Shown: positions 6,944 through 63,742 of the stretch, in pieces | How the letters are laid out: each line of letters opens with the position of its first letter | Numbering within the stretch: the first letter of the stretch is position 1 | Assembly: GCA_034430215.1 (NCBI GenBank) | Contig: DAOUFE010000013.1 | Span: 5,702 to 69,701 of the forward strand | Length of the DNA stretch: 64,000 nucleotides | Direction of reading: 5' to 3' | Source: Anaerolineaceae bacterium | GTDB taxonomy: Bacteria; Chloroflexota; Anaerolineae; Anaerolineales; Anaerolineaceae | The notes under the pieces: generated by a model | What the model was told of the DNA's origin: nothing | Seen by the model: only the letters and a program-made list of their open reading frames with translations | The model's database searches: none | Program-made: the position numbers and the translations under genes

Positions 6944-7780
6944 ATGGAATTACTCACTGCAGCTGCAATTTCAACTAAAAACTATATTGGTGAGCAAGGC
7001 AAAGCACTACAAACAATGGAAAACTGGCTTCAGCGCGCTTCTGAACAGGGATCAGAACTGGCTTTATTCCCCGAACTCAATGTCAGTGGATATATCCCCG
7101 CCCCCATTGCCGCTCAAATAGCTGAACCTGTTCCGGGACCTTCCACCGAGAAGATCATCCGGCTGGCAGAAAAATATCGCACGACAATCGCTTTTGGGTT
7201 GATCGAAAAAGAAAACAATAAATTATTTTGCACACATGTGCTGGTAAACGGAAATGGGATTCTGGGCAAACAACGAAAGATCCATGTGCCGGCTCATGAA
7301 CGACCTTTCTGGGGCGCAGGGGATGCCATTGAGATCATGGATATGGGAAAAGCAAACATTGGCATTGCTGTTTGTCGGGATGCTTTCTTTGACGAAATGA
7401 CCCGCACACTCTACTTTAAAGGCGCCGATATCGTTCTGATGCCTTTTGGGTACTACAACGTGCCGCGCAACCAATACCTCAAAGAGACGATTCATGGCAT
7501 GTCTCTGGTCAAATCAGCCTGGTCCAATGGTTTTTTTGAGCTTTTATGCAACAACGCAGAAGATCGCTCTGCCAATGCCTACGAGCCACACGGGAATAAG
7601 TTCCCTGGTTGGGCTGGCATTATCGATCCTTGGGGCATGGTTCTAGGGTTTGTGGAAGATGAAGGGAATAATGAATCCATGATCGTACGGAAGCTCGATC
7701 CTGCTGTTATGATTGACCGCCGCTCCCACCCCAATTTCCTTGCAAAGGAATTACGCCCAGCGTTGTATCAATTTGAATGA
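6944..7780 (+). CDS. carbon-nitrogen hydrolase (nitrilase superfamily)
   Basis: The Glu-Lys-Cys triad contexts are present: FPELNVSGY, GKQRKIHVP and IGIAVCRDAFF. Confidence 0.8.
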   Translation: MELLTAAAISTKNYIGEQGKALQTMENWLQRASEQGSELALFPELNVSGYIPAPIAAQIAEPVPGPSTEKIIRLAEKYRTTIAFGLIEKENNKLFCTHVLVNGNGILGKQRKIHVPAHERPFWGAGDAIEIMDMGKANIGIAVCRDAFFDEMTRTLYFKGADIVLMPFGYYNVPRNQYLKETIHGMSLVKSAWSNGFFELLCNNAEDRSANAYEPHGNKFPGWAGIIDPWGMVLGFVEDEGNNESMIVRKLDPAVMIDRRSHPNFLAKELRPALYQFE

Positions 7781-7821
7781 TTCCCAGAATATAAATTATT
7801 TGCTTCGATTTTCATAAAGGG

Positions 7822-7863
7822 AAAGCACCTCAATTTTGTGCAGATGAGGTGCTTTCATTTTTA
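7822..7863. terminator. bidirectional intrinsic terminator between convergent genes
   Basis: Perfect 11-bp stem aaagcacctca / tgaggtgcttt (7822-7832 and 7845-7855) followed by cattttt. Confidence 0.7.
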
Positions 7864-7898
7864 CCCATTAGAACCTGTCACCGTGTGGTCAGCCTGTG

Positions 7899-44554: not shown

Positions 44555-45985
44555 ATGATTGCATTCTTTACCATGCTCGAAGAGCGGGCAAAACAAACAG
44601 GTTCTCTTTTATGTGTCGGGCTTGATCCTCATCCGGCGGACTTGCCTGCTCAAACAGCCCTGGCAGCGCGCGATTTCTGCCTGCGTCTGATTGAAAAAAC
44701 AGCCGATGTAGCACTGGCGTATAAACCCAATGCAGCATTCTTTGAGATATATGGATCAGAAGGATGGAAAGCGCTTGCAGAAGTGATCGCGGCAGCTCCG
44801 CATGGCACCCCCATGATATTGGATGCAAAACGGGGAGATATATCCTCCACAGCAGATGCATATGCCAAAGCAGCTTTTGAAACGCTCAAAGCACAGTGCA
44901 TTACCTTGAGCCCATACCTGGGGCATGACAGTCTGCAGCCATTCATCAAAGATCCAGAAAAAGGCATTTTCTTGCTCTGTAAAACCTCTAACCCTAGTTC
45001 AGGTGATCTGCAGGATATCACCCTGGCGGGCGAGAATTACCCTCTTACTTTGTATCAAAAAGTAGCTAAACTTGCCGCACAATGGAACACCGCCAACAAT
45101 ATTGGTGTGGTAGCTGGTGCTACCCATCCCAACGCCTTGCGCAAAGTACGCCAGGCAGCTCCAGATTTATGGATCCTGGCGCCTGGCGTAGGTGCACAGG
45201 GTGGTGACCTGCAAGCAGCTTTACAGGCAGGCTTGCGCAGTGATGGATTAGGAATGCTAATTCCGGTTTCACGCGGTGTTGCCTGCGATCCCGATCCACA
45301 TGCCGCTGCGAAGAAGCTGATGGATGAGATCAATAAAGAACGGAAAGTAGTCATCAGCCAGGCTGTTCTGGCTGAAAAAGAGCCTGCTGTTCCACCTGCC
45401 CTGGCAGAAGGGCTGCTGCAGGCAGGCTGCATCCGTTTTGGAAACTTCACCCTGAAATCGGGGTTGCAGTCGCCTATTTACATCGATCTGCGCCAACTGG
45501 TCACGTATCCAAAACTGCTGGCTGAAGTTGCTTCTGCATATATTACTTTACTGAAGGGTTTGAAATATGATCGGTTGGCAGCTCTACCTTACGCTGCTCT
45601 CCCCATCGCCACAGCTATATCCTTGCAAACTGGCGAACCCATGCTTTATCCACGCAAAGAAGTAAAAGACTATGGCACAAAAGCGGAAATCGAGGGAGAA
45701 TATAAAGAAGGCGAGAAAGTAGTAGTGATCGATGATCTGACCACTACGGGTGGCAGCAAATTTGAAGCCATCGAAAAACTGACCGCTGCCGGATTAAAAG
45801 TAGAAGATGTAGTAGTACTGGTTGACCGCCAATCTGGTGCAGCGGAAGCACTGCAGCAGGCAGGGATCAAACTCCATGCTGTGCTGACATTATCCCGCCT
45901 GATCGATTACTGGGAAAAAGCTAACCGTATTCCTGCAGAGCAGATCCAGGCTGTACGCGAATTTCTAAAGGTGCAACCAGGATAA
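44555..45985 (+). CDS. pyrF/pyrE: fused orotidine-5'-phosphate decarboxylase (type 2, N-terminal) / orotate phosphoribosyltransferase (C-terminal)
   Basis: N-terminal half has LCVGLDPH and ILDAKRGDISSTADAY. C-terminal half has IRFGNFTLKSGLQSPIYIDLR and the PRPP motif VVVIDDLTTTGGS. Confidence 0.85.
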   Translation: MIAFFTMLEERAKQTGSLLCVGLDPHPADLPAQTALAARDFCLRLIEKTADVALAYKPNAAFFEIYGSEGWKALAEVIAAAPHGTPMILDAKRGDISSTADAYAKAAFETLKAQCITLSPYLGHDSLQPFIKDPEKGIFLLCKTSNPSSGDLQDITLAGENYPLTLYQKVAKLAAQWNTANNIGVVAGATHPNALRKVRQAAPDLWILAPGVGAQGGDLQAALQAGLRSDGLGMLIPVSRGVACDPDPHAAAKKLMDEINKERKVVISQAVLAEKEPAVPPALAEGLLQAGCIRFGNFTLKSGLQSPIYIDLRQLVTYPKLLAEVASAYITLLKGLKYDRLAALPYAALPIATAISLQTGEPMLYPRKEVKDYGTKAEIEGEYKEGEKVVVIDDLTTTGGSKFEAIEKLTAAGLKVEDVVVLVDRQSGAAEALQQAGIKLHAVLTLSRLIDYWEKANRIPAEQIQAVREFLKVQPG

Positions 45986-47828: not shown

Positions 47829-49070
47829 TTATTCATGTCTGAGTGCGACAATAGGATCCAACTGTGCAGCTTTGTGAGCCGGCAGGTATCCAAAGAAAAT
47901 GCCAATGAGCGCAGCCGAGCAGAATGACAAAATAATGGAGAAACTGGAAATTACTGTACGCATTCCGCTCAATGATCCAAACAACCAGGAGCCAACCACC
48001 CCTGCAATTACACCAATTACTCCTCCGAGTAAACTTAACATCAGAGCTTCGAGCAAGAACTGGGTTTGAATATCACCTGGAGTAGCGCCTACTGCCTGCC
48101 GTAATCCAATTTCACGCGTGCGCTCAGTGACACTTACCAGCATGATATTCATGATCCCAATGCCACCCACAATCAGGGAAACACCAGCCACCCATCCCAA
48201 CAAAGTGCGGAAAGATGAAGTGGTGGATTCCTGGGTCTCGATAATGTCATCCTGTGTGGTGATATTGAAATCCGCTGTATCCACTGTTACCTCGTGCCTG
48301 TTAACCAGCAGCAAGGTGATCTGTTGGACCACTGCTTCCATCTGGTCTTTATCTTTTACGGAGACAATGATCATCCGTACATCGTCACCCATGATACGGG
48401 CGAATTGAGATGGTGTGAATTTCTTAAACACGACTGAAATGGGGGTGTAGATCTGTTCATCGTAATCTGTACCTGAAGATAATCCTTTGGGGGCAAGAAC
48501 CCCAATCACGGTCAGTTTAGTATTGCCAACTGTAATATATTGACCAATTGGATCGGTACCCGAATCGCCAAATAATTCATCTGAAATAGATGAACCCAAC
48601 ACCACTACTTTACGGGTGTTGTCCATCTCCTCCTGGGTGAAGTATCGTCCGGTGGCAACCTCTACTTCACGCACGGTAGGGTAATCAATCGTAGTACCAA
48701 CTACAGTGACATCAGAAAGTGTTATTCCATCAAATTTGATAGTTTCACTGGCTGATTGTTCCACTGAAACTCCCGCAATACCATTGATTTTTTCACTAAT
48801 GGCGGTTGCATCATCAAATTTCAATCCACCCGAAGAACTGTTGGGTCCCATGGAAGGACCTCCCCGGGTGAAAGCCGTCGAAATGAATATCAGGTTGGAG
48901 CCCAGCCCATTGATGGCTTCAGAAATAGTAGCCTCAGTACCTGCGCTGACCGCAATCATAATGATGACCGCGGCAACACCAATGATGACACCCAGCATGG
49001 TCAATAGAGAACGTAATTTGTTGGAAAGCAGACTTTTCCAGGCTACTTTCAAAACTTCACGGTAGTTCAT
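47829..49070 (-). CDS. MacB/FtsX-type ABC transporter permease
   Basis: 413 aa with TM1, a large extracytoplasmic domain, then 3 TM helices (FtsX/MacB architecture). ATGA overlap with the ATPase gene. Confidence 0.85.
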   Translation of the reverse strand: MNYREVLKVAWKSLLSNKLRSLLTMLGVIIGVAAVIIMIAVSAGTEATISEAINGLGSNLIFISTAFTRGGPSMGPNSSSGGLKFDDATAISEKINGIAGVSVEQSASETIKFDGITLSDVTVVGTTIDYPTVREVEVATGRYFTQEEMDNTRKVVVLGSSISDELFGDSGTDPIGQYITVGNTKLTVIGVLAPKGLSSGTDYDEQIYTPISVVFKKFTPSQFARIMGDDVRMIIVSVKDKDQMEAVVQQITLLLVNRHEVTVDTADFNITTQDDIIETQESTTSSFRTLLGWVAGVSLIVGGIGIMNIMLVSVTERTREIGLRQAVGATPGDIQTQFLLEALMLSLLGGVIGVIAGVVGSWLFGSLSGMRTVISSFSIILSFCSAALIGIFFGYLPAHKAAQLDPIVALRHE

Positions 49071-49834
49071 TCTGATGCTCCTTCCGATGCCACTTTTTGA
49101 GTTTCACCATGCACAGATTTCAAAATAGGATTTCGGTTTGTTCTTTCCATAGCCAATTTACCATCACGGATAAGGATGATCCTTCCTGCGTGTTGTGCAA
49201 TATCAGGTTCGTGGGTAACCATCACAATGGTACGTCCTCGATCATTAAGTTCATGCAAGATATCCATGATCTCAATACTGGAACGTGTATCCAGGTTGCC
49301 GGTAGGCTCATCCGCCAGGATCAAAACCGGGTCATTTATAAGAGCCCTGGCAATGGCAACACGCTGTTGCTGCCCGCCTGACATCTGGTTGGGAAGGTGA
49401 TCCGCCCGCTCTTTCAGACCCACGCTTTCCAGTGCAGCCAGCACCTTTTGCTTTCGTTCTTCCATAGGAATATTACCCTCCCTCTGATACATCATCGGAA
49501 GCATGACATTTTCCAATGCGGTTTGACGAGGAAGAAGGTTATACGATTGAAAGACAAATCCCAACTGGCGGCTTCGAATGAACGCCAGTTCTTTCCGGCT
49601 ATACTCACTCACATCTTCCCCTGCAAGGATATAGTGACCACCTGAAGGTCTATCCAGGCAAGCCAGAATATTGAGGAGAGTGCTTTTTCCTGAACCGCTG
49701 GGACCCATAATGGCAACAAATTCACCTTCATGGATCTGGATGTTAAGGTCATCCAGTGCAGTCACTCTGTACTCGCCCTCGCCATAAATTTTCGTTAATC
49801 CAATCGTCTCGATGATCGTATGATTCTCGCTCAT
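49067..49834 (-). CDS. MacB/LolD-type ABC transporter ATP-binding protein
   Basis: Walker [10 protein letters not shown], signature [15 protein letters not shown] and Walker [12 protein letters not shown]. Confidence 0.9.
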
Positions 49835-51276
49835 GATTGCGTCTCCAAAATACCTGTCGTAACCACATCACCCTCTTTCAGCCCAGATGTGACAACGGTA
49901 TAAGTCGAATCGGATAGGCCAATTTCGACAACAGTCAGAGTAAGTTTGCCATTGGCACCCACTACAAATACACCATATTGATCATCCCCCAGGTCATGCA
50001 CCGCTTCCACAGGCACCAGGAGCGCATTTTCTGCCTCACCACCAATAACTTCAACGGAGGCATTCAATCCTTCGATCACAACCACAGAATCATTTTCATT
50101 GGATAGGTCAAGCTGGATGACCCCCTGTACTACCTGATAACCATTCATTGTCTGCAGGGTTGGATTGATCTCTGTTACTGTTCCTTCAAACACCTTATTG
50201 GGAATGGCATCAAAAGTGACTTTAGCAGAAGCACCTTCAGAAACTTTATCCAGATCGGTTTCATCCACCCAGAACTCTACTTCAGGGTGTACCAGGTCAG
50301 CGATCGTGATGAAAGAGCCTGTTCCGACCTCGTCACCTACTTCGCCCTCGATGGAAAGGATTGTGCCATCGAATGGGGCGTAGATGGTAGTGCCTTTCAA
50401 GGTGGCAAATGCCTTGTCATAGGCAATCTGTGCTGCGGCTACACTTGTCTCAGCAATTGCCAGGTCAGAAGGATCAATCCCATTATTTGCTTGTAGTTCA
50501 GCTAATTTATCTTCTGCTTCTTTGACTGCTGCTTCTGCCAGAGTTAAGGTGGCCTGCGATGAATCGATCTCATATTGGGTATATCCAGCGCAATATTGAT
50601 AGGTGGCATATGCCTGTTCGACTTTCGTTTTTGCCGGGAGAATAACTTTTAAGTAATAATCCTGATTGGTGTTGCTTTGATCCAGAGCGTTCAGGGCTTC
50701 TTGAGCTTTCATATATGCCGCGTAATAAACATCTGTGGTGTCCTGGTCACAGCGTGCCATCCCTGCTGTCAATACGTTAGATTGAGCTTCCTCGAGTTCC
50801 TTTTGCGCATTTGCCAAAGTAAGGGCTGCATTTGCCAGGTTGGTCTCTGCACTATTTTTTACTTCTTCCAGATTTTGATTGGCAGCTTTAAGATCCAATT
50901 CAGCCGTAGTCAGGGCAGATTGCAGGGTACTGATGTCAGCAATTCTTGCCAATTCCTGTCCTTCGGTCACTTTGTCGCCCACAGCTACAGAGATGGAAGC
51001 CACAGTTCCTGATGCAGTAAAGCTTAAGTTTGTTTTTTGACCGCCTACCAGTGAACCGGTGCCGCTTGCGGAGAGTGTCAATGTGCCACGTCGAACCTGA
51101 GCAGTCTGGTAACCAGTTTGTTCAGTGGTATTAGCAATAGATGATCTTTTCAAAAGGATATAGCCTAACCCTGTGGATGCCAGAACTGCAACCATAATAA
51201 CTGGGATGAGTATCCTCTTATTAACCTTTCTTAATTTCATACGCTCTTTCATAGGTCTTGAAACTCCTTTATCCAA
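49831..51276 (-). CDS. HlyD/MFP-type periplasmic adaptor, paralog 3
   Basis: N-terminal TM anchor, biotinyl-lipoyl-like segments flanking a long coiled coil, and a C-terminal beta-barrel. Paralogous to the two upstream genes. Confidence 0.8.
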   Translation of the reverse strand: MDKGVSRPMKERMKLRKVNKRILIPVIMVAVLASTGLGYILLKRSSIANTTEQTGYQTAQVRRGTLTLSASGTGSLVGGQKTNLSFTASGTVASISVAVGDKVTEGQELARIADISTLQSALTTAELDLKAANQNLEEVKNSAETNLANAALTLANAQKELEEAQSNVLTAGMARCDQDTTDVYYAAYMKAQEALNALDQSNTNQDYYLKVILPAKTKVEQAYATYQYCAGYTQYEIDSSQATLTLAEAAVKEAEDKLAELQANNGIDPSDLAIAETSVAAAQIAYDKAFATLKGTTIYAPFDGTILSIEGEVGDEVGTGSFITIADLVHPEVEFWVDETDLDKVSEGASAKVTFDAIPNKVFEGTVTEINPTLQTMNGYQVVQGVIQLDLSNENDSVVVIEGLNASVEVIGGEAENALLVPVEAVHDLGDDQYGVFVVGANGKLTLTVVEIGLSDSTYTVVTSGLKEGDVVTTGILETQS

Positions 51277-51297
51277 ATGGGTAACAAAAAAGTGCCT

Positions 51298-52752
51298 CTA
51301 TTCAGAAACCTTGCTGGTGATGATGAGCTCTCCATCGCGTAATCCATCAATAATTTCTATATAACTGGCATTCTGAAATCCAACTTCTACAAAACGTTTT
51401 TCGGGCGTTCCGTCTGAATTCAATACATAGACAAATGATTTACCTTCATCGTTCTGATAAACTGCAGTTACAGGCGCAAGCAGCACCCTGCTCGCCTCTC
51501 CACAGGTAAGGTATACGGTTCCGTTCATGCCCAGCGATAAATATTTTCCAGGCATCAGCATAGGATCCTGCAAGGTAACCACCCCTGTTGCCACAGAGGT
51601 ATTGAACCCTGACATCAATTCAGGTGAAACCTGAGTGACTGTTCCCGTGTACACCCGGTCAGATACTGCAGATAGAACCACCTGGGCGCTGCACCCTTCC
51701 TGTAATGCTTGATAATCTGATTCATCAACTGAAACATTCATTACCAGTTGCGATAGGTCTGCCATTCTTATGAGCGTAGAAGTATCTACACTGTCACCAA
51801 CCGCTGCATTAATTGCCAGAATAACTCCGTCGGTTGGTGCAACCAACGTTGCATCTGCCAGATCGTTCTGTGCTTTGGTAAGCTGTAATTGCGCGTTTTC
51901 AAGTTTAGCCTGGGCAATTTCGACCGCAATGGGATCTACTCCATTGTGTTCAAGCAAATATTGATAATCTTTTTCTGCCAGTTCCATCTTGGCTTTTGCA
52001 AGCATCCATTTTGCTTCAGACTCATCAGTTTCTGTTTCTGTATACCCTGAGCAATATTGCCAGTTGAGGTACGCTGCATCACGGGCATTCTGCAGGGGAG
52101 TCAAATTTGTGAGAATATAGTCTTTTCCGTATCCGGTTTTCGGGTTTTCCAGTTCATCCTCCCAAACCTGGGCTTTTCGACGATAATCCCAGTATTCTGC
52201 AAGGAATTTGTCAGAGATCTCACTGCTGCAACGAACTGTTCCACTGGTCACATGGTCTTTATCCGCTTCTTCAAAAGCTTCCTGTGCTTCCGCTTGATCG
52301 AGAAGAGCCTGCGCCAGAGTGGTTTCGCCACTGCTGAGTAATGTAGTCAGTTCATTCTGTGCATCAAGAACTGCCTTCTCTTGCTGCTCAAGTTTCACCT
52401 GCAAAGAATTCAATTCGCTGGAAATTGCCAGAACATCCCCTGCTTTCACCTCATCGCCAATTTTGACATTCAGGGTCGCCAGCGTACCAGGGGTGGTAAA
52501 AGCAAGATCAATGGTTTTTGCAGCACTTAAGGAGCCTGAACCGGTAGCCGTTACCGTGATATCACCGCGTAAAGCAGGGGTTGTTTGATAGGCAGTCTGG
52601 GTAACTACATTTGTCGTTTGGTTCCCAACGGGAAAGATACAAAGCACAATAACAATGACCAGTATTCCTCCTGAAGAGATCAATGCGGGGATGCGGTATT
52701 TTTTCACAAAGGTTTTAACTGCCTGGAAAAAAGTTTTCATGGGTTCATCCAT
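51298..52752 (-). CDS. HlyD/MFP-type periplasmic adaptor, paralog 2
   Basis: Same architecture as paralog 3. It starts 2 nt after the stop of paralog 1. Confidence 0.8.
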   Translation of the reverse strand: MDEPMKTFFQAVKTFVKKYRIPALISSGGILVIVIVLCIFPVGNQTTNVVTQTAYQTTPALRGDITVTATGSGSLSAAKTIDLAFTTPGTLATLNVKIGDEVKAGDVLAISSELNSLQVKLEQQEKAVLDAQNELTTLLSSGETTLAQALLDQAEAQEAFEEADKDHVTSGTVRCSSEISDKFLAEYWDYRRKAQVWEDELENPKTGYGKDYILTNLTPLQNARDAAYLNWQYCSGYTETETDESEAKWMLAKAKMELAEKDYQYLLEHNGVDPIAVEIAQAKLENAQLQLTKAQNDLADATLVAPTDGVILAINAAVGDSVDTSTLIRMADLSQLVMNVSVDESDYQALQEGCSAQVVLSAVSDRVYTGTVTQVSPELMSGFNTSVATGVVTLQDPMLMPGKYLSLGMNGTVYLTCGEASRVLLAPVTAVYQNDEGKSFVYVLNSDGTPEKRFVEVGFQNASYIEIIDGLRDGELIITSKVSE

Positions 52753-52754
52753 TT

Positions 52755-54182
52755 TTATTGGCTCATTGTGGGTACCATTCCTGTAGAGACAATATCACCC
52801 ACATTCAAACCACTCGTTATTTGTATGTACGTCGAATCGGATAAGCCCACTTCCACCGTATGTAATCGAAGTGTTCCATCGTCATCGATCACAAAAACGG
52901 CATATTCTCCATCACCCAGGTCGTGTACAGCTTCAACAGGGGCTACAACAGCATCTTTTACTTCTGAAGAAATAATCTCAACCCCGGCATTCAATCCAAG
53001 GGGAATAGTCTGAAAATCTACCGTAGTGGATGGCTCCAATTCAATCAAACCCTGAGCGGTTTGAACCATGTTGATATTTACCAACTGAGGTTCGATCTGA
53101 ATCAGTGTGCCGGTGAATATATAATCTGGCAAGGCATCGAAAATCACTTCTACGCTGCTGCCTGTAGTAAATAATGGCAAATCTGATTCATCTACATTCA
53201 CCCGGACAAACGGATTGCTTAAATCTGATATGGTGATGAACAGCGATGTGTCCACCAACGCCCCTTCTTCTGCAGCCAGGTAGGTAACCACACCATCCAT
53301 CGGGGCTGTAAGGGTGATCCCATCCAGTATCGCTTGTGCTTCTGTCAATTTATCTTGTGCTTCGGTGACTTTTGCTTCAGCTAATTGCAGTTCGAGCGGG
53401 TCAATTCCAGAGCCGTCTTTAAGCGTGTTGTACCTGAGTTCTGCAGATTTTTGAGCTGCGTCAGCCAGTTCAAGGTTGGCTTGCGCTTCTTCTTTTTCAC
53501 CACTGGTATAAGAAATGCAATAATTGTAGTTTGCCACGGCGGTGTCATACCGGCTCTTTGTTTCGATATACTGGGCGCTGCCTTCGGTCAATTCTTTCAG
53601 TTTATTGAATAAGTTTTCTACTGAAGCTGCATACCCTCTGGTAACCGTGTCACTGCAGCGTGAATATGAAGTATGTTGTGCCTCAGTCAAAGCTATCTGA
53701 TAATCTTCCTTAGCAGTCACCCAATCCTGGTATGCCTGTGCCAGAGTAACATCGGCATTCTTTTGCAGGTCATCCAATTCCTTTTGAGCTTCCAATAATG
53801 CCAGCTTTGCACTGGAGACATTCACTTTGAGTGTTTCTGACCCTTCGATTCTGGCTAAAACTTCACCAGCTTTCACCTTGTCCCCAAGCTTTACGTCCAG
53901 CTCAGTTAAGATACCTTGCGTAGGAAAATTCAAATCTACTGAATTACGGGTGATAAGAGTCCCAGAGCCATTGATTGAAACACGGACATCGCGCTGCAGA
54001 ACTTTCGCAGTTTGATAGGTGGTACCCGCTTTATTTCCAGAATTCGCAAGAGAACTAGAAGAACCCTTAAGAAAATAAAACGCTGTTCCCGCGCCAACCA
54101 ACAGTGCTCCACTGATGAGAATGATCCAGAAACGCTTGCTTTTAGGTTTTTTAATTTTTTCCAGTACTCCAGAAAACTTCAT
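52755..54182 (-). CDS. HlyD/MFP-type periplasmic adaptor, paralog 1
   Basis: Same architecture. It is the first gene of the six-gene operon. Confidence 0.8.
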   Translation of the reverse strand: MKFSGVLEKIKKPKSKRFWIILISGALLVGAGTAFYFLKGSSSSLANSGNKAGTTYQTAKVLQRDVRVSINGSGTLITRNSVDLNFPTQGILTELDVKLGDKVKAGEVLARIEGSETLKVNVSSAKLALLEAQKELDDLQKNADVTLAQAYQDWVTAKEDYQIALTEAQHTSYSRCSDTVTRGYAASVENLFNKLKELTEGSAQYIETKSRYDTAVANYNYCISYTSGEKEEAQANLELADAAQKSAELRYNTLKDGSGIDPLELQLAEAKVTEAQDKLTEAQAILDGITLTAPMDGVVTYLAAEEGALVDTSLFITISDLSNPFVRVNVDESDLPLFTTGSSVEVIFDALPDYIFTGTLIQIEPQLVNINMVQTAQGLIELEPSTTVDFQTIPLGLNAGVEIISSEVKDAVVAPVEAVHDLGDGEYAVFVIDDDGTLRLHTVEVGLSDSTYIQITSGLNVGDIVSTGMVPTMSQ

Positions 54183-55141: not shown

Positions 55142-56545
55142 ATGAGGAAGACGTTATACTGGAAACTTGCTCTTGCTTTTATGTTCGTTGCAGTCATTGC
55201 AATTGTTTTAATCGCGATCTTTATTCGTATTACCAATGTTGACCGCCTCACCAAGTTGATCACAGAGCAACAGGGGAGCAGCCTGCAGGCAAGCATGGCG
55301 GAATATTACGCCATTACGGGTTCATGGCTGGGTGTAAAGGAATACTGGCAAACTGCCCAAATGCGGCCTACCCAATCCTCTGATTTGACGCAAGAACCAA
55401 ATACGAACAATCCCTTCCCACCTGAAGGACGTGATCGTCGAAATTTCTTTGGTCTGGTGGATGCCGATAGAGTTGTTCTGGTATCGGTTGATCCAAAATA
55501 TCCTGAAGGTAGTACTCTGCCTGAAGAGATGTTGAAAAATGGCTTTCCTATTACGGTGGATGGTCAGCAGGTGGGAACGATCATCAATGCGAATACTCCT
55601 CCAGGTTTCCTCCCAGAAGAAAATCTTTTTCTGACACGAACTAATCAGGCATTGCTGCTGGGGGTGGCTGGTGCGCTACTCATCGCATTAGTGGTCGGAT
55701 TTGTGTTAGCGCGCACATTGACACGCCCATTACGTGATCTCACTCAGGCAGCTCAAAGGATTGCCGATGGAAATCTGGAGCAGCAGGTAAAAGTGAATTC
55801 AAAGGATGAGATCGGTGATCTGGCAATCGCTTTCAATCAGATGAGTCACGAAGTGGCCCATCAATCGTTACTTCGTAAACAAATGACTGCTGATATCGCT
55901 CATGACCTGCGAACGCCATTGACAGTCATCGCCGGGTATATTGAATCCATGCAGGATGGAGTTCTCCAACCTACCCCCGAAAGATTGGCGTTGATCTATT
56001 CTGAGATTGAACGTCTGCAAAACCTTGTAGGCGACCTGCGTATGTTGTCGCAGGCAGATGCAGGAGAGTTACCCTTGAACCCGCAGAAAATAGAGCCTGC
56101 CTCGTTGCTAGAAAGGTCAGCCGCACTCTTTCAACATCAAGCTGAAAAACAGCAGATCACTCTTGAAGTCCAGGTTCCGGAGGTTCTACCAGAAATCTTT
56201 GTGGATGAAGCCCGCATGCTGCAGGTATTCGATAACCTGATCAGCAATGCTTTCCGGTATACACCCGCAGGGGGAAGGATCTCACTTTCGGGAAAGCTCC
56301 AGAATGACAGAGTAGTGTTAAGCGTAAATGATACCGGTTCGGGTATTTCAATTGACGAACAGCCGTATATTTTTGATCGCTTCTATCGGGCGGATAGATC
56401 CCGGCATGCTGAAAATGGGGAGTCAGGACTTGGCCTGGCAATTGTGAAGGCATTGATTGAAAGCCAGAATGGGAAGGTATGGGCTGAGTCAAAACCGGAA
56501 CATGGAACCACGATCTATATGGAATTCCCTGTGAATAATTCATAA
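55142..56545 (+). CDS. sensor histidine kinase (TM-sensor-TM-HAMP-HisKA-HATPase)
   Basis: H-box IAHDLRTPLT, N-box NLISNAFRYT, and G-boxes DTGSGI and GESGLGLAIV. Confidence 0.9.
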   Translation: MRKTLYWKLALAFMFVAVIAIVLIAIFIRITNVDRLTKLITEQQGSSLQASMAEYYAITGSWLGVKEYWQTAQMRPTQSSDLTQEPNTNNPFPPEGRDRRNFFGLVDADRVVLVSVDPKYPEGSTLPEEMLKNGFPITVDGQQVGTIINANTPPGFLPEENLFLTRTNQALLLGVAGALLIALVVGFVLARTLTRPLRDLTQAAQRIADGNLEQQVKVNSKDEIGDLAIAFNQMSHEVAHQSLLRKQMTADIAHDLRTPLTVIAGYIESMQDGVLQPTPERLALIYSEIERLQNLVGDLRMLSQADAGELPLNPQKIEPASLLERSAALFQHQAEKQQITLEVQVPEVLPEIFVDEARMLQVFDNLISNAFRYTPAGGRISLSGKLQNDRVVLSVNDTGSGISIDEQPYIFDRFYRADRSRHAENGESGLGLAIVKALIESQNGKVWAESKPEHGTTIYMEFPVNNS

Positions 56546-56568
56546 GGCAAAAGGGGCTGTCATTACGA

Positions 56569-56703
56569 ACCCTGCGTTCTTAAAAGGGAGATGCAATCTG
56601 AATCAAGAGACTGCCACGCTTCGCTCGCAATGACAAACCCACTGACCTTGCAAACCCTGCGTTCTTTACAGGGTGATGCAATCTTGCGTTTTTCGTGGTG
56701 AAC
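56569..56703. repeat. family A tandem repeat, about 1.6 copies of the 85-bp unit
   Basis: Units start at 56569 and 56654. The terminal unit accctgcgttctttacagggtgatgcaatcttgcgtttttcgtggtgaac closely parallels 4796-4848. Confidence 0.85.
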
Positions 56704-56731
56704 TGTCCACATTCATGAATCCTCCATCTAC

Positions 56732-56760
56732 TTGGCAACCTGCCTACTTTATTGCATAAT
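56732..56760 (+). promoter_or_regulatory. promoter-like TTGGCA-17-CATAAT upstream of the TGT-like gene
   Basis: The hexamer match and spacing are good. However, the -10 ends only 9 nt before the ATG at 56770, which would imply a near-leaderless mRNA and would exclude the GAGGGGG RBS. The call is therefore uncertain. Confidence 0.3.
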
Positions 56761-56769
56761 GAGGGGGTG

Positions 56770-57888
56770 ATGGAACAATCCTTACGCAACCTGCCCTTGG
56801 CACATGGCACTCTGACCTTTCCCGTTTTTCTTCCCGATGCAACGTACGGCATGGTGCGTGCGGTGGATGCGGAAGCGCTGGATTCTCTTGGCATCCAGGC
56901 GCTTGTGATGAATACTTTTCACCTGATGCAGCACCCTGGTTCCGCCACTATAAAAGCATTGGGCGGTTTGAATACCATGAGCGGTTGGCATAAGCCCATC
57001 ATGACTGATTCGGGTGGTTTTCAGGCTTATTCACTTATTCACAACAACCCTCGTGCGGGCACCATCACTGAACAGGGATTGACTTTTCAGCCCGAAGGCA
57101 GCCAGCATAAGATTCAACTTACCCCCGAAAAAAGTATCCAGCTACAATTGGCATTTGGTGCAGATATCGTTGTGTGCCTGGATGATTGTACGCACGTGGA
57201 TACCAGTGAAGAAGAACAGCACCAGTCAGTCAAACGCACAGTAGCCTGGGCAAAACGCTGCCGAACTACCTTTGATCAGCTTCTCAAGCAAAAGCGGAAG
57301 AATCCTGAACACCGTCCCCTGCTTTTCGCCGTGGTTCAGGGTGGAGGATCCTTCGACTTACGGAAAGAATGTGCAGATGCCTTGTTGGAAATTGGGTTTG
57401 ATGGCTATGGTTTTGGCGGTTGGCCGCTTGACTCACAATCCAACCTGCTGACAGACATCCTGGAATACACCCGCAGCCTTATCCCATCACAATTTCCACT
57501 CCATGCTCTGGGAGTGGGGCACCCCGAAAACGTATCAGCCTGTTACCGTATGGGGTATCCTATGTTTGATAGTGCCATGCCAACACGCGATGCCCGTCAT
57601 GGCAGGCTCTATACTTTCACAGGCTCACTCGAACAGATCAACCCGTTCGCACCTGCAAAAGAATGGCTGCGGTATTTTTATATTCAAGATGAGATACACA
57701 TCAGAGATAATCGGCCTCTGGTGGAAGGCTGCCCGTGCCCTGTCTGTCGCAAATACTCCGCTGGCTATCTGTATCACATATTTAAGATGAACGACTCCCT
57801 TTTCCCCCGCCTGGCGACAATGCACAATCTAGGGTTCATGTTGATGCTTTGTGACCTGCTTCGCGAACATAAAGAGGCAAGGTCTTAA
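56770..57888 (+). CDS. tRNA-guanine transglycosylase (TGT) family protein, atypical
   Basis: MTDSGGFQ, LDDCTH, MFDSAMPTRDARHG and the zinc site CPCPVC ... MHN are conserved. The region equivalent to bacterial GGLAVGE reads GGWPLDS. The ATG at 56770 follows GAGGGGG. Confidence 0.8.
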   Translation: MEQSLRNLPLAHGTLTFPVFLPDATYGMVRAVDAEALDSLGIQALVMNTFHLMQHPGSATIKALGGLNTMSGWHKPIMTDSGGFQAYSLIHNNPRAGTITEQGLTFQPEGSQHKIQLTPEKSIQLQLAFGADIVVCLDDCTHVDTSEEEQHQSVKRTVAWAKRCRTTFDQLLKQKRKNPEHRPLLFAVVQGGGSFDLRKECADALLEIGFDGYGFGGWPLDSQSNLLTDILEYTRSLIPSQFPLHALGVGHPENVSACYRMGYPMFDSAMPTRDARHGRLYTFTGSLEQINPFAPAKEWLRYFYIQDEIHIRDNRPLVEGCPCPVCRKYSAGYLYHIFKMNDSLFPRLATMHNLGFMLMLCDLLREHKEARS

Positions 57889-58697
57889 TGGTGGATGAGG
57901 ACTTGGTGAGGAGAGTTGTAGAAGCGGTGATGGCTGGCAGCGGATATAGCAGCATCAGCCGCGATCTGGTCATCCACATTGCCACCCGTGAAATTGCAAA
58001 AGGAAGAGCTTTTAAAGACAGCGTAAAAGCCACCCGCACAGTACTGCATCAAATTGGCGGGGCGTATCTTCCCGTCAACCCGCCTTATGAACTTTGGGTA
58101 AAAGAACTGGCCGGTTTATCGCGGTATCCCACCGACCCAACTTTACGTACATTTTGCATACAAAAAATGCAGATGCATGCTTCCACTCGCGAGCGCCTTC
58201 CTTTTTTGGAAGATTTTATCAATCTCATTCGCGAGAATGTAGGAGAGATTGGTTCTTTGCTTGACCTGGCGTGTGGATTAAACCCTTTGACATTGCCCTG
58301 GCTCCCAATGAAACCTAATGCCCGGGTGTATCTCTGTGACATCTATACAGATATGGTTGCATTTATGGATAGCTTTCGCCAGCATCTCGGATACGCCGGC
58401 TCCAGTCAGGTATGTGACCTGACCAGCGAGGTGCCTGATCGTCCTATTCAGGTCGCGTTTCTCCTTAAAATAATCCCATGTCTTGAACAAATACAGAAAA
58501 CAATCGGCTCTCGCCTTCTGGAAGGTATACAGGCTGAAACTCTGGTGGTAACATTTCCTGCATACAGCCTGGGGGGACGCAGTAAAGGGATGCGCCAGAC
58601 ATACGCAGTCCATTTCAATGAACTTGTGGCTGGGAAGCCCTGGGAAATTGAGAAGTTTGAAATCGGGAATGAGCTTGTATATATCATTCAAAAATAA
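57888..58697 (+). CDS. 16S rRNA (guanine1405-N7)-methyltransferase family protein (ArmA/Rmt/FmrO-type)
   Basis: Blocks TRTVLHQIGGAY, HASTRERL, LLDLACGLNPLTLPW, VAFLLKIIPCLEQ, VVTFPAYSLGGRSKGM and IGNELVYIIQK parallel ArmA/RmtB as I recall them. The ATG shares one base with the upstream TAA. Confidence 0.8.
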   Translation: MVDEDLVRRVVEAVMAGSGYSSISRDLVIHIATREIAKGRAFKDSVKATRTVLHQIGGAYLPVNPPYELWVKELAGLSRYPTDPTLRTFCIQKMQMHASTRERLPFLEDFINLIRENVGEIGSLLDLACGLNPLTLPWLPMKPNARVYLCDIYTDMVAFMDSFRQHLGYAGSSQVCDLTSEVPDRPIQVAFLLKIIPCLEQIQKTIGSRLLEGIQAETLVVTFPAYSLGGRSKGMRQTYAVHFNELVAGKPWEIEKFEIGNELVYIIQK

Positions 58698-58723: not shown

Positions 58724-59218
58724 ATGGATAAAAAGATTTTGGTAGCGTATGCCAGCCGGGCAGGATCTACAGCAGAGGTAGCTGAAGAAGTAGGAAAAGT
58801 TCTGGCGGCAGAAGGATTGCCCGTGGATGTTTTGCCGATCCAAAGCGTGACATCCTTTGAACCATACAGGGCTCTGGTATTGGGCAGTGCAGCCCGCATC
58901 GGTAAATTGATCCCTGAAACCATTCGTTTCGCCCGAAAATATGCAAAATCATTCCAGCCGATAAAAGTGGCTTACTTTGTGGTTTGCTTGACCATGTTCA
59001 AAGATACCCCCGAGAACCGCACAACAGTCGAAGGATATCTTAAACCTTTATACAAGATCAAAGAACCGGTAGATCATGAGATGTTCGGCGGTGCAATGTT
59101 CCCAGAAAAAATTCCCGGCATCTGGAGCAAGATCATGCGTAATGCTGAACGGGGTGACTATCGTGATTGGGAAGCAATCCGCGCCTGGGCAAAACAATTG
59201 GCAATCAAACTGCAATAA
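58724..59218 (+). CDS. flavodoxin-domain protein (HemG-like fold)
   Basis: ILVAYASRAGSTAEVAEEV N-terminal FMN-loop context. Length is 164 aa. Confidence 0.65.
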   Translation: MDKKILVAYASRAGSTAEVAEEVGKVLAAEGLPVDVLPIQSVTSFEPYRALVLGSAARIGKLIPETIRFARKYAKSFQPIKVAYFVVCLTMFKDTPENRTTVEGYLKPLYKIKEPVDHEMFGGAMFPEKIPGIWSKIMRNAERGDYRDWEAIRAWAKQLAIKLQ

Positions 59219-59234: not shown

Positions 59235-60026
59235 ATGACACCCATCCCCATTTTTCAGGTGGATGCTTTTACATCTAAAGCATTTGGCGGCAACCCGGCA
59301 GCAGTCTGTCTGTTATCCAGGTTCATGTCCGATGCCTGGATGCAATCCGTCGCTGCTGAAATGAATCTTTCGGAGACAGCTTTTCTCCTTCCGCAGGAAG
59401 ATGGATTCTCTTTACGCTGGTTTACACCTCGGGTTGAAGTAGCACTTTGCGGGCATGCCACACTGGCATCAGCACATGTCCTTTTCCAGACGGGCAGAAT
59501 ACCGGTAGGGGGTACTGCACATTTCTACTCTCGCAGTGGATTGTTGACTGCCACAGAAAACGCTGGCTGGATAACATTAAATTTCCCCACACGACCTGTG
59601 AAAACAGTACCCGAACCTTCCGGTTTACAAAGATCCCTTGGTGTTGAACCCTTGTATGTAGGGATGGGAGAAGACCTGCTGGTGGAAGTCAGCAGTGAGC
59701 GCGAAGTACGAGAATGTACTCCCGACTTTGCCCGCTTATTGGAGCTTCCAGTGCGGGGGGTGATTCTCACCGCCAGGGCAGAGATGCAGGGTTTTGATTT
59801 TGTTTCCCGCTTCTTTGGTCCTCAAGTGGGGATCAATGAAGACCCGGTGACAGGTTCAGCACACACCTCGCTGGCTCCCTATTGGAGCGAGAAACTGGGA
59901 AAGACGGATTTCATGGCATATCAGGCATCTGCCCGGGGAGGAGTTCTGCGGGTCAGTTTGTTGGGAGAACGAGTTGCCATTTCTGGTCAGGCAGTGATGA
60001 TCTTTGAGGGAGAGCTCCAGGCTTGA
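59235..60026 (+). CDS. PhzF-family isomerase-like protein
   Basis: IFQVDAFTSKAFGGNPAAV, ETAFL and CGHATLAS are typical of the PhzF family. Confidence 0.85.
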   Translation: MTPIPIFQVDAFTSKAFGGNPAAVCLLSRFMSDAWMQSVAAEMNLSETAFLLPQEDGFSLRWFTPRVEVALCGHATLASAHVLFQTGRIPVGGTAHFYSRSGLLTATENAGWITLNFPTRPVKTVPEPSGLQRSLGVEPLYVGMGEDLLVEVSSEREVRECTPDFARLLELPVRGVILTARAEMQGFDFVSRFFGPQVGINEDPVTGSAHTSLAPYWSEKLGKTDFMAYQASARGGVLRVSLLGERVAISGQAVMIFEGELQA

Positions 60027-61045: not shown

Positions 61046-61198
61046 AAAAAGCACTCATATAGAAAAATTCCCAAAAAACAACAATTTCATGAAAGATTAT
61101 TTGCAATAATCTTCTTTCAATCATCTATGGTATGGTGTTGTATAATTTAAACGATTGGTGGGACAGGAAGTCGTTGCATCTTGATTAGGGAGTGTAAT

Positions 61199-63742
61199 AT
61201 GCACAAGACGATGTTCAATTTTGGAAAACTCTTTCTCTATTGCGGGTTGATCTGCACATTCTTATTGCCTCAACCGGTTTTTGCTGATTCAGTGATCAAA
61301 ACCGTAGATATCGTCCAGGTGGATTCAACCAAATTCCCAGATGTGACCCTGACCGTCAATCTGCTGGATTCCGCACGTACGCCGGTGACCCAGCTTGACA
61401 GTAGCAGTCTGATCCTGAAGGAAGACGATGTTCAATTGCCATATACATTCGTTTCTTCAAAAAGAGGGGTGAATGTTGTTCTGGTGATGGATATCAACTA
61501 TGCAGTTGGTAAAACGGGATTATCCGGGAAAGCCATTATGGCTGAAATGCGAGATGCCGCGCTGGCTTTTGTTCAAACCGTACAACCTGCAGATGCGGTA
61601 GAACTTGTCACCGTGATCGGAAATGAAGTCGATGTTGCACAGACTTTCACCAATGATTCGACTATATTAACCAATAAGATCAACGGGATGAAATATGAAA
61701 ATGCCTCCAACACATCTTATGCATTGGCAGGAGTATGCCAGGCGATTACTAACCTGGATGATGCTTACTCCAATCCAGCCCCCAAGATTGTTATCCTTCT
61801 TACCCCTGATCTGCAACAAAATACTGCCGGATGCCTAACCACGGATGTACCTGCCAAAGCTCGCAAAGGTGAAATCTGGGTGCATACCATTATGATGGGA
61901 AACGAAGATCCAATTGGATTGGACACAATGGCAGAGAGCACAGGCGGAAAATTCATCCGCTATACCAGTGCCAGTGATGTGAACGCCCTCTATTCACAAA
62001 TCGATCTTTTACGCCAGCAGTATCAATTGACATATCGAACAAAATCAGCCAGCCCAAGCGAAAGAACCGTATCATTGGTGGTCAGTCCCGAAACCAGTTC
62101 TTCACCGAATGATAGTATGACCTTTACTGTTAAACCTTCACCGCAGGCTCCCGCTATTAGTGGCATCGTTGCCAATGAAGGAAGCCCTATCATTCGGACA
62201 GCACCTGAATCAGATAGCTCCACCGATGATGCAACTCCCACCCAGGTACCCGTGAAAGCATCTGTCAGCTTCCCGGATGGTTATAATCGTAGCCTGACAG
62301 GCGCCCAAATTGAAGTAGACGGTGTACCTCTTGGAGATATGATCATTGCAGATGATGGCAGTCTCAGCTTCACATGGGATATTCGCGGTTACTTCACCGC
62401 AGGTGAAAATACCGCCCGCATAAAGATCATCGTTCAGGATGAGCTGGGCATGGAAAACAGCGCGGAAACCGACATTCCCATTGAAGTAAACATTCCTGGC
62501 GCTTCCAATCAGTTCTGCCTGGAAGTTCAAAATTGGAAAGTGGTCGGTGAGTATTTATATGAACCATGTGTCAAATACAACATCACCGCCGATAAAGCCA
62601 CGAACATAGGAATCACCCTGGGAGCATCGGTGTTGGGCATCTTAGCCCTGATCGTGATCATCATTCTGTTAATCTCCAATCGCAAAGCAGTGGTGAAAGC
62701 CAGCAAGAAGATGGGTGCAGGTGTTTCCACTATCGCTTCACGGATGACCCAACGAATCGGTGCCGGAGCAGGACCAAAGCAGCCACGTGCACAACTTGAA
62801 GTTCTTGCAGGTGGGCAGGTTGGCAAGAAGTATGACTTGTATGGGAAAACCACTATCGGTCGTGATCCAGAAAAAAGCCAGATGACGCTAGATAATCCAC
62901 TGGTCAGCCGGGCACATTGTACATTTCATTTGGATATGAACGCCGGCAAATGGACGCTCGAAGACCTTGAAAGCGCCAATGGTACCTACCTGAACAGCTT
63001 GCTATTACCACCTCATCAACCGCGTGAACTAAAAAATGGCGATACACTCGACCTGGCTCCCATCCCTAAGGGTGGTATACGCTTCCGATTTATCATCCTG
63101 GTACAACCTATGTCAACCGTTACGTTGAAACAGGGTCAGGTACCAGATCCCTATGCAACACAAAATCCGTATGCGACACGCAAAGGAACAGTACCTCCTC
63201 AAACACCACCAACAGGAGCACCAACGACACCGAACGTTCCTCCACATGTACCAACCGCCGGTGTACCTACCGTACCTCAACAACCGGGCGCACCCACCGC
63301 TCCAAGACCGCAGGGGGTACCAACCATACCTCAGCAGCCCGGCGTACCGACCATACCTCAACAACCGGGTGTTCCTACGGTTCCAAGACCACAGGGTGTA
63401 CCAACCATCCCGCAACAACCTGGCGTACCCACTGTTCCAAGACCACAGGGTGTACCTACCATTCCACAACAACCAGGTGTGCCAACCATACCTCAACAAC
63501 CGGGGGTACCCACCGTGCCAAGACCGCAGAGCGTACCAACCATCCCGCAGCAGCCAGCACCACCTACCGTGCCCAACCAACCAGCGCCGCCAACCATACC
63601 GAACCAACCCGCGCCGCCTACAGTGCCAACACCTCCACAGCAGCAACCTCCGGCTGGACCTTATCCACCACAGCCTAATCAGCCGCCAAAACCTACCAAA
63701 CCAGATGTTTTATGGCCACCGCCGCCGGAACAGAAACCTTAA
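61199..63742 (+). CDS. vWA-like / TM / FHA-domain protein with proline-rich repeat tail
   Basis: Signal sequence and a vWA-like fold (VVLVMDINYA ... without a canonical DxSxS MIDAS). There is a TM helix (LGASVLGILALIVIIILLI) and an FHA domain (TIGRDPEKSQMTLDNPLVSRAHC ... LESANGTYLN). AGGGAG RBS precedes the ATG at 61199. Confidence 0.75.
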   Translation: MHKTMFNFGKLFLYCGLICTFLLPQPVFADSVIKTVDIVQVDSTKFPDVTLTVNLLDSARTPVTQLDSSSLILKEDDVQLPYTFVSSKRGVNVVLVMDINYAVGKTGLSGKAIMAEMRDAALAFVQTVQPADAVELVTVIGNEVDVAQTFTNDSTILTNKINGMKYENASNTSYALAGVCQAITNLDDAYSNPAPKIVILLTPDLQQNTAGCLTTDVPAKARKGEIWVHTIMMGNEDPIGLDTMAESTGGKFIRYTSASDVNALYSQIDLLRQQYQLTYRTKSASPSERTVSLVVSPETSSSPNDSMTFTVKPSPQAPAISGIVANEGSPIIRTAPESDSSTDDATPTQVPVKASVSFPDGYNRSLTGAQIEVDGVPLGDMIIADDGSLSFTWDIRGYFTAGENTARIKIIVQDELGMENSAETDIPIEVNIPGASNQFCLEVQNWKVVGEYLYEPCVKYNITADKATNIGITLGASVLGILALIVIIILLISNRKAVVKASKKMGAGVSTIASRMTQRIGAGAGPKQPRAQLEVLAGGQVGKKYDLYGKTTIGRDPEKSQMTLDNPLVSRAHCTFHLDMNAGKWTLEDLESANGTYLNSLLLPPHQPRELKNGDTLDLAPIPKGGIRFRFIILVQPMSTVTLKQGQVPDPYATQNPYATRKGTVPPQTPPTGAPTTPNVPPHVPTAGVPTVPQQPGAPTAPRPQGVPTIPQQPGVPTIPQQPGVPTVPRPQGVPTIPQQPGVPTVPRPQGVPTIPQQPGVPTIPQQPGVPTVPRPQSVPTIPQQPAPPTVPNQPAPPTIPNQPAPPTVPTPPQQQPPAGPYPPQPNQPPKPTKPDVLWPPPPEQKP
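63260..63630 (+). repeat. coding tandem repeat, about 13-14 copies of a 27-nt / 9-aa unit (GVPT[IV]P[QR][QP][PQ])
   Basis: The periodic GVPTIPQQP / GVPTVPRPQ units can be read directly in the translation. Confidence 0.85.

Follow-up and report, generated by a model that had tools for sequence, protein, structure and literature searches.

Overlapping genes for a tRNA-guanine transglycosylase and an FmrO-type methyltransferase

The window analysed here is a 64,000-nt stretch of contig DAOUFE010000013.1 (assembly GCA_034430215.1), from a bacterium of the family Anaerolineaceae (Chloroflexota). Its forward strand carries an open reading frame (ORF) of 372 aa for a variant bacterial-type tRNA-guanine transglycosylase (TGT; positions 56770-57888), followed by an ORF of 269 aa (57888-58697) for a class I S-adenosylmethionine-dependent methyltransferase of the FmrO/Sgm type, predicted to act on N7 of guanine 1405 in 16S rRNA. 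The TGT stop codon, TAA (57886-57888), and the ATG of the methyltransferase (57888-57890) have one base in common. On inspection of the forward strand, the resulting TAATG (57886-57890) is a putative site of translational coupling. An earlier reading of the letters alone, without database searches (hereafter the sequence-only reading), had described these ORFs and their junction, and all of it, coordinates included, is borne out; on an identical metagenome contig, the JGI gene calls give the same TGT and FmrO genes. The same reading had noted a promoter-like element upstream, and such a site is present on the forward strand (TTGGCA-17 nt-CATAAT, 56732-56760), 10 nt before the TGT start region. 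It is the best sigma-70-type match of the region, agreeing at 10 of 12 positions in a scan whose total did not exceed the shuffle expectation, and it may serve as the promoter of the pair. In the closest relative (locus L006) it is kept as TTGGCA...GATAAT, and the sequence further upstream is not kept. Between this site and the ATG at 56770 lies a Shine-Dalgarno-like GAGGGGG (56761-56767, forward strand), which reads GAGGAGG in L006.

Searches with the Pfam TGT and FmrO models, as proposed in the sequence-only reading, recovered both domains at full length. The first ORF matched the TGT model PF01702 over residues 8-367 (322.4 bits, E = 4.7e-96) and TIGR00449 with 301.3 bits (cutoff 47.6). Its score against the NCBIfam model Q_tRNA_tgt (TIGR00430), 299.5 bits, fell narrowly under the equivalog cutoff of 306.75; despite this sub-cutoff score for the window protein, some members of its clade carry the NCBI name Tgt. 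It is about 35% identical to the TGT of Zymomonas mobilis over the full length. Two other branches of the superfamily, the DNA 7-deazaguanine transglycosylase DpdA and the archaeal ArcTGT, share with it the fold and the base-exchange chemistry and are precedents for a change of substrate among TGT relatives. Membership in either was rejected, since the matches were weak (27.1 bits against a cutoff of 200 for DpdA, 102.5 against 350 for ArcTGT). The window protein clearly belongs with the bacterial type of Tgt.

The second ORF matched PF07091 well above the cutoff (147.7 bits, residues 20-266 of 269). It scored 204.6 bits against the Rmt_gen model, under the cutoff of 250, and matched all Rmt subfamily models far below their cutoffs. 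Its closest relatives of solved structure are Sgm (4e-47), the 16S G1405 methyltransferase 6pi9 (3.6e-33), RmtB-type enzymes (3.3e-26) and 3fzg (3.3e-21). It aligns to residues 15-281 of Sgm with 164 bits (HMMER) and 35% identity (MAFFT), and the two proteins have in common the blocks HASTRERLP, LDLACGLNP, CDI, D177, K194, LLK..PCLE and FPxxSLGGRSKGM. The block-by-block likeness to ArmA and RmtB that had been noted from the letters alone thus holds, with Sgm as the closest solved structure. Sgm, FmrO, KgmB, RmtB, ArmA and the window protein all show the same full-length, three-part architecture and the same HxSTRERL, DLACGLNP, K..PCLE and SLGGRSKGM blocks. In the searchable literature, FmrO homologues of Chloroflexi appear only as uncharacterised members of trees.

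A second, divergent FmrO gene directly follows the first in some relatives (7923-8741 in L001, 5897-6727 in L171 and roughly half of loci L006-L085), with a Rmt_gen score of 177 bits. Its product keeps the SAM-binding blocks, with HASTRERL and DLACGLNP, has HR(M/F)E for PCLE, and differs in the SLGGRSKGM target loop, which is altered and shorter by one residue. Its target may differ, or it may be a partner subunit. The window holds no second FmrO gene.

The gene pair is conserved across much of the Chloroflexota

To survey the pairing, one genome per GTDB species was scanned, which gave 80 loci; a metagenome scan that started from more distant members of the clade added 80 more. The GTDB loci span the Anaerolineae (Leptolinea, Longilinea, Bellilinea, Ornatilinea, Flexilinea and Anaerolinea), the Caldilineaceae with Litorilinea, the Thermoflexales and the Ktedonobacteria, the last including the complete genome of Ktedonosporobacter rubrisoli. 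When the TGTs were clustered at an average identity of at least 45%, one clade of 128 loci resulted. In a first classification, FmrO stood directly downstream of the TGT gene in 111 loci, upstream in three and fused to it in one; nine loci left no room to judge and FmrO was apparently absent from four. Two of these four (L113 and L147) had been misclassified by a rule on ORF starts and do have FmrO, so that the genes adjoin in 117 of the 119 informative loci. The survey of TGT-FmrO adjacency that the sequence-only reading had called for therefore returned a linkage far above chance, mostly with start/stop overlap and also in reversed and fused forms.

The 115 downstream pairs include 72 in which FmrO start and TGT stop overlap by 1-11 nt and another 25 with a gap of no more than 30 nt. 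The gene order is reversed in four loci, and in L094, L129 and L157 it is the TGT start that FmrO overlaps. A search entered from the other side, through an FmrO match on a 1.68-Mb contig, led again to a TGT-FmrO-FmrO arrangement. The only clade loci with enough downstream sequence and no FmrO within reach are L040 and L103; in L040, a 305-aa ORF overlaps the TGT start in place of FmrO.

In several genomes the two proteins are one. Two NCBI contigs encode fusions whose linker is about 12 residues long (P0244 and P0391, 628 aa). In the fusions of three Chloroflexota metagenome-assembled genomes (MAGs; P0392, 667 aa, and the partial P0387 and P0393), the linker has about 50 residues and abounds in Ala, Pro, Ser and Gln. 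The two linkers are unrelated, which indicates at least two independent TGT-FmrO fusions in a total of five assemblies. On the contig of P0244 (L086), an RsmI-like gene (7280-8011) overlaps the start of the fusion gene. A single Logan contig encodes a protein of 710 aa (P0254) in which an RsmI-like (TP_methylase) domain stands N-terminal to a TGT of the GGWPIDE type.

The pairwise distances of the TGT and FmrO proteins are strongly correlated (Mantel r = 0.825; the maximum of 999 permutations was 0.295), from which we conclude that the pair has travelled as a unit; shared vertical descent by itself would produce such co-divergence too. The sequence-only reading knew of no described pairing of the two families, and the searchable literature (open-access PMC papers and bioRxiv preprints) is likewise silent: it holds no account of a TGT-FmrO pairing, and nothing that joins Anaerolineae with a 16S methyltransferase and aminoglycosides, or G1405 with Chloroflexota. 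A Bartonella queuosine-salvage paper and an RmtE genomics paper make no mention of Chloroflexota, and the former contains none of the pocket-residue terms looked for; the queuosine passages of a DPANN paper say nothing relevant.

A TGT subfamily with an altered 7-substituent pocket

The motifs that the sequence-only reading had ascribed to the TGT (MTDSGGFQ, LDDCTH, GGWPLDS, MFDSAMPTRDARHG, CPCPVC and MHN) were all found in the 372-aa ORF. For a comparison of residues, the 128 FmrO-linked sequences were set against 26 sister and 139 canonical sequences, with Z. mobilis numbering checked on D102, D156 and D280. The window protein has the catalytic residues Asp102 and Asp280, the guanine-face residues Asp156, Gln203 and Gly230, and the zinc site Cys318/Cys320/Cys323/His349, all of which are 99-100% conserved among the 128 clade sequences. 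Across all three groups, N70, D102, Q107, D156, G229/G230, G261, D280, R286, R289, the four zinc ligands and Y330 are invariant, and Q203 (92-100%) and H333 (80-100%) nearly so. Within the 128 sequences of the clade, D102, D156, Q203, G229/G230, D280, R286, R289, C318/C320/C323/H349 and Y330/H333 are conserved at 97-100%. Thus the catalytic and zinc residues, R286/R289 and the dimer residues Y330/H333 are those of the Z. mobilis and Escherichia coli enzymes.

What differs is the segment that reads the substituent at position 7 of the base. Where the Z. mobilis and E. coli enzymes have Leu231-Ala/Ser232-Val233-Gly234-Glu235, the segment that recognises pre-queuosine 1 (preQ1), the window protein has W231-P232-L233-D234-S235 (W-P-L-D-x in window-type TGTs); H-A-L replaces Y258-L259-M260, and D-A replaces V45-G46. 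In the FmrO-linked clade, W231 and P232 are present in 100% of sequences, D234 in 93%, H258 in 89% and L260 in 95%, and E235 is absent; canonical TGTs, by contrast, have L231 in 94%, S or A232 in 97%, G234 and E235 in 100% and M260 in 99%. GGWPL(D/S/N) is present in all of the 120 closest homologues of the window TGT (61-90% identity). The C-terminus is also short: after the zinc-binding His, the clade has a median of 18 residues and 133 canonical sequences a median of 36, a difference of about 18.

Part of this pattern extends to the sister groups, which together with the FmrO-linked clade differ from canonical TGTs by having D in place of V45, A in place of G46, W in place of L231 (100% in the clade, 84% in the sisters), P in place of A/S232 (100% and 88%) and L in place of M260; the shortening of the C-terminus by about 18 residues is likewise common to both. 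The sisters keep E235 in 34%. Specific to the FmrO-linked clade are D234 (93%, against 26% in the sisters), H258 (89%), H264 and A282, and the clade keeps C158 as canonical TGTs do, a position that is mostly Phe in the sisters. In Z. mobilis TGT, the peptide between residues 231 and 232 reportedly flips with the aid of E235, its NH reading N7 of guanine and its carbonyl the aminomethyl group of preQ1. A proline at position 232 has no such NH, so that the loss of E235 together with the gain of P232 is coherent as a co-change, which may lock the carbonyl-out, preQ1-type conformation.

We considered whether the altered pocket is a product of the partnership with FmrO. That idea is weakened by distant TGTs with the same W/P pocket and neither FmrO nor any conserved neighbour (P0249, P0264, P0245 and 23 of the 26 sister loci): as W231 and P232 occur in these FmrO-less proteins, the pocket is not explained by the partnership and is older and broader than it. 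Overall, the window TGT lies outside the canonical bacterial cluster, in keeping with the sequence-only reading, and belongs to a distinct TGT subfamily with a consistently different, conserved pocket predicted to receive the 7-substituent. A further variant, P0329 (581 aa), joins a TGT of the GGWPLK type to a C-terminal RVT_3 (RNase H-like) domain.

Possible links to queuosine and to other decoding-centre enzymes

In control loci whose TGT has the canonical pocket, queA lies directly upstream of tgt in 7 of 12 (PF02547, 443 bits); one of the 12 has queH and none has FmrO. The usual neighbour of a window-type TGT, unlike that of bacterial Tgt, is FmrO and not queA. The queA-tgt order nevertheless survives, as a QueA profile search of all loci showed, in one Anaerolineae MAG (L046), where an intact queA directly precedes a TGT with FLPDAT, GGWPLDS and HALGIG; in another locus (L109, 2836-4017), the queA upstream of TGT-FmrO is split between ORFs of 216 and 164 aa, either as a pseudogene or through an assembly error. 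The only known substrate of QueA is preQ1-tRNA. In addition, a YhhQ-type queuosine-precursor transporter (TIGR00697, above cutoff) is encoded near TGT-FmrO in 21 of the 128 loci. The adjacency of queA and the association with the transporter point to a tie between the variant TGT and the ordinary queuosine pathway, and they speak against the suggestion, made from the GGWPLDS segment, that it is no housekeeping tgt. The 64-kb window itself contains no queuosine-pathway genes. In the classical queA-tgt operon, tgt likewise shares an operon with an RNA-modification gene; the difference is that the constant partner in the FmrO-linked clade is an rRNA methyltransferase. A homologue search was also run from the canonical-pocket representative closest to the window TGT (P0342); with this deltaproteobacterial query, no sequence with a Chloroflexota name was among the 120 matches listed.

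The genes that follow TGT-FmrO in relatives point to the same part of the ribosome. RsmF, RsmI and RsmE methylate the 16S decoding centre, making m5C1407, Cm1402 and m3U1498, respectively. Downstream of the pair we found RsmF-like genes in 57 loci, RsmI (TIGR00096, above cutoff) in 39 and RsmE-family genes in 31, and almost all matches to these three families and to the transporter fell in the FmrO-linked clade. None of the four occurs within the 64-kb window.

The pair is native rather than acquired

NCBI, JGI and Logan contigs carry a protein that matches the FmrO protein of the window at 100% identity. At species level, the closest genome is that of an Anaerolineaceae MAG with a TGT 94% identical to the one in the window. 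The GC content of both genes, overall and at third codon positions (GC3), lies within about 1.2 standard deviations of the long ORFs of the window. No transposases, integrases or aminoglycoside-biosynthesis genes were found among the surrounding genes, as judged from the ORFs of the window and family searches. Recent horizontal acquisition was therefore rejected on the native composition, the ordinary chromosomal context and the co-divergence of the two proteins, and the sequence-only proposal of an independently acquired unit does not hold. The FmrO gene of the window differs in the same way from Sgm, RmtB and ArmA: it is chromosomal, present throughout the lineage and coupled to tgt, and it lies in neither a producer cluster nor a mobile element. 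Hallmarks of acquired or producer-type genes are missing here, with no biosynthesis cluster, mobile element or foreign composition in the surroundings and a position that is kept in more than 100 genomes. As a pair that is inherited together, and sometimes fused, across much of the Chloroflexota, the two genes constitute an RNA-modification unit native to the lineage, not a resistance island that was acquired. Of the two-enzyme module envisaged from the letters alone, the pairing stands; its acquired origin does not, nor does the inclusion of the two downstream genes and of the upstream repeats (see below).

Interpretation of the pairing

The best explanation of these observations is a vertically inherited RNA-modification operon of the Anaerolineaceae bacterium. 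Specifically, we favour, at somewhat better than an even chance, a native operon through which the tRNA-G34 transglycosylase belonging to the lineage is expressed together with an intrinsic methyltransferase for 16S m7G1405. The first gene would encode a tRNA-guanine(34) transglycosylase of the queuosine pathway, with catalytic, zinc and guanine-face residues retained and the 7-substituent presumably read by the different, proline-containing G-G-W-P-L-D segment. The second would encode an intrinsic Sgm/FmrO-type enzyme that places m7G on G1405 of the 16S rRNA in the 30S subunit. An own promoter-like site and translational coupling through TAATG would cause the two to be made together, and each would perform the reaction of its own family on its own RNA. 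With the RsmF, RsmI, RsmE and second FmrO genes of relatives, the pair might belong to a gene set for tuning the decoding site, and insensitivity to 4,6-disubstituted aminoglycosides would be an intrinsic by-product.

Several observations weigh against this interpretation. The linkage is much tighter than is usual for two enzymes with separate substrates, the overlap is found in the reversed order too, and two independent TGT-FmrO fusions and one RsmI-TGT fusion exist. At the residues that face position 7 of the base, the TGT is unlike every characterised TGT; D234, H258, H264 and A282 set the FmrO-linked clade apart, and the clade lacks about 18 C-terminal residues. Both proteins score under the NCBI equivalog cutoffs. 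Finally, queA adjoins the TGT gene in only 2 of about 128 clade loci, against 7 of 12 canonical ones.

Because the genes overlap in both orders and fusions have arisen independently, one of them to an RsmI-like domain, two other readings keep some weight. In the first, which we regard as unlikely, TGT and FmrO form a physical complex, bifunctional where they are fused, that still modifies separate RNAs; the linkage would then serve stoichiometry, stability or recruitment, with, for example, a 30S-binding FmrO keeping the TGT near the translation machinery. Start/stop overlap in 72 of 115 pairs and its persistence in the reversed order would fit such a complex, as would two natural fusions with different linkers in five assemblies, the RsmI-like gene that overlaps the fusion gene in L086, and the strong co-divergence of the proteins. 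However, that co-divergence could follow from shared vertical descent as well, and the same W/P pocket is found in sister TGTs that do without FmrO. AlphaFold2 on the P0244 fusion, with an unpaired alignment that makes it a weak test, gave well-predicted domains (predicted local distance difference test, pLDDT, 87), a disordered linker of low confidence and no confident interface (predicted template-modelling score, pTM, 0.58).

The second reading, a speculative one, is a two-step 'guanine-7' pathway on a single nucleotide, and we hold it to be very improbable. FmrO would methylate N7 of a guanine, in 16S G1405 or in a tRNA, and the variant TGT would then exchange the m7G, methylation having made a good leaving group, for an imported 7-deazaguanine; Pro232 would remove the backbone NH that faces N7, with Trp231 and Asp234 as possible counterparts of the methyl group and the positive charge. 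The changes in the TGT do concentrate at residues that face position 7, with D234 and H258 specific to the FmrO-linked clade. The TGT is fused to FmrO and once to an RsmI-like domain, both partners being enzymes of 16S helix 44, and the neighbours are almost exclusively decoding-centre rRNA methylases and a transporter for a 7-deazaguanine precursor. Against this, W231 and P232 are also found in TGTs without an FmrO partner, queA directly precedes a TGT of this type in L046, the residues of the RNA-phosphate and ribose pocket (N70, Q107, R286 and R289) are unchanged, and 7-deazaguanine is not known to occur in rRNA. A broader statement makes the two proteins the halves of one pathway on the same guanine. 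In its boldest form, m7G1405 is swapped for an imported 7-deazaguanine; in a milder one, a stable bifunctional complex links modification of the tRNA wobble position with that of the 30S decoding centre. Even with both forms taken jointly, it seems improbable to us.

That the FmrO gene is primarily a determinant of aminoglycoside resistance or self-protection, of the producer or the acquired Rmt/ArmA type, which landed beside tgt, is essentially excluded: Sgm, to which it is 35% identical with a full-length match of 164 bits, is a self-resistance enzyme of a producer, and all acquired Rmt subfamily models are matched, but the Rmt scores are far under every subfamily cutoff, the composition is native, the surrounding genes include no aminoglycoside-biosynthesis genes, transposases or integrases, and the tgt-adjacent position, conserved in more than 100 species-level genomes of several classes and co-diverging with tgt, largely refutes it.

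Both enzyme families are well known. What is new is a TGT subfamily of its own that is locked, across much of a phylum, to an FmrO clade of housekeeping-like character. On the reading of a native operon, a family known almost only for aminoglycoside resistance appears ancient, chromosomal and housekeeping-like in a large environmental phylum, which bears on the origin of the Rmt/ArmA genes and on the question whether m7G1405 plays a native part in decoding. The TGT subfamily is sizeable, and its pocket, conserved and uncharacterised, departs from the best-studied substrate pocket of the TGTs. Near-absolute linkage, overlap whichever gene comes first, and independent fusions that join a tRNA enzyme to enzymes of 16S helix 44 are the classic signature of a functional partnership. 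If true, a swap of m7G1405 for a 7-deazaguanine would be without precedent in ribosomal RNA.

Flanking genes and repeats

Two further genes follow the pair on the forward strand: one with a Flavodoxin_5 domain (58724-59218; Pfam match), after a gap of 26 nt, and one for a PhzF-family isomerase-like protein (59235-60026; Pfam and NCBIfam matches), after a gap of 16 nt. A scan of the region between the FmrO and Flavodoxin_5 genes revealed no terminator-like site, and both genes are probably co-transcribed with the pair. They had been proposed to extend the module. The short gaps are real; as module members, however, the two genes were rejected, since they lie 3' of TGT-FmrO in six loci only, all close relatives, and so fall outside the conserved unit. 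A polysaccharide deacetylase gene stands downstream of them.

Upstream of the pair, an OmpR-type response regulator and a histidine kinase form a two-component system. Two direct repeats of 43 nt (56557-56599 and 56642-56684), 84% identical and 85 nt apart, lie between the stop codon of the histidine kinase gene and the promoter-like site, and each contains a small hairpin of the CCCTG...CAGGG type. Rfam gave no match at gathering thresholds in the whole window, nor at E values up to 10 in 56500-56800. The repeats are absent from L006 and from every other fetched locus (170 others), the identical contig L005 excepted. They were accordingly rejected as a part of the unit, and the 'repeat array' of the sequence-only reading proved an overstatement, as there are two copies, peculiar to the window and its identical contig.

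The wider window includes genes of pyrimidine biosynthesis, a gene for a VWA-FHA protein and a MacAB-type efflux system. In the efflux operon (47829-54182, reverse strand), the genes for a MacB-type permease and an ABC ATPase precede those for three tandem paralogues of HlyD-family adaptors (481, 484 and 475 aa), an unusual number for one such operon. A single ORF of 476 aa (44555-45985, forward strand) combines OMP-decarboxylase and phosphoribosyltransferase domains; it has the appearance of a pyrF-pyrE-type fusion and adjoins an aspartate carbamoyltransferase gene. The protein with VWA and FHA domains (853 aa; 61181-63742, forward strand) ends in a long, proline-rich tandem repeat of PQQPGVPT(I/V)P and RPQGVPTIP units, and the corresponding DNA (about 63100-63700) contains long spurious ORFs in other frames.

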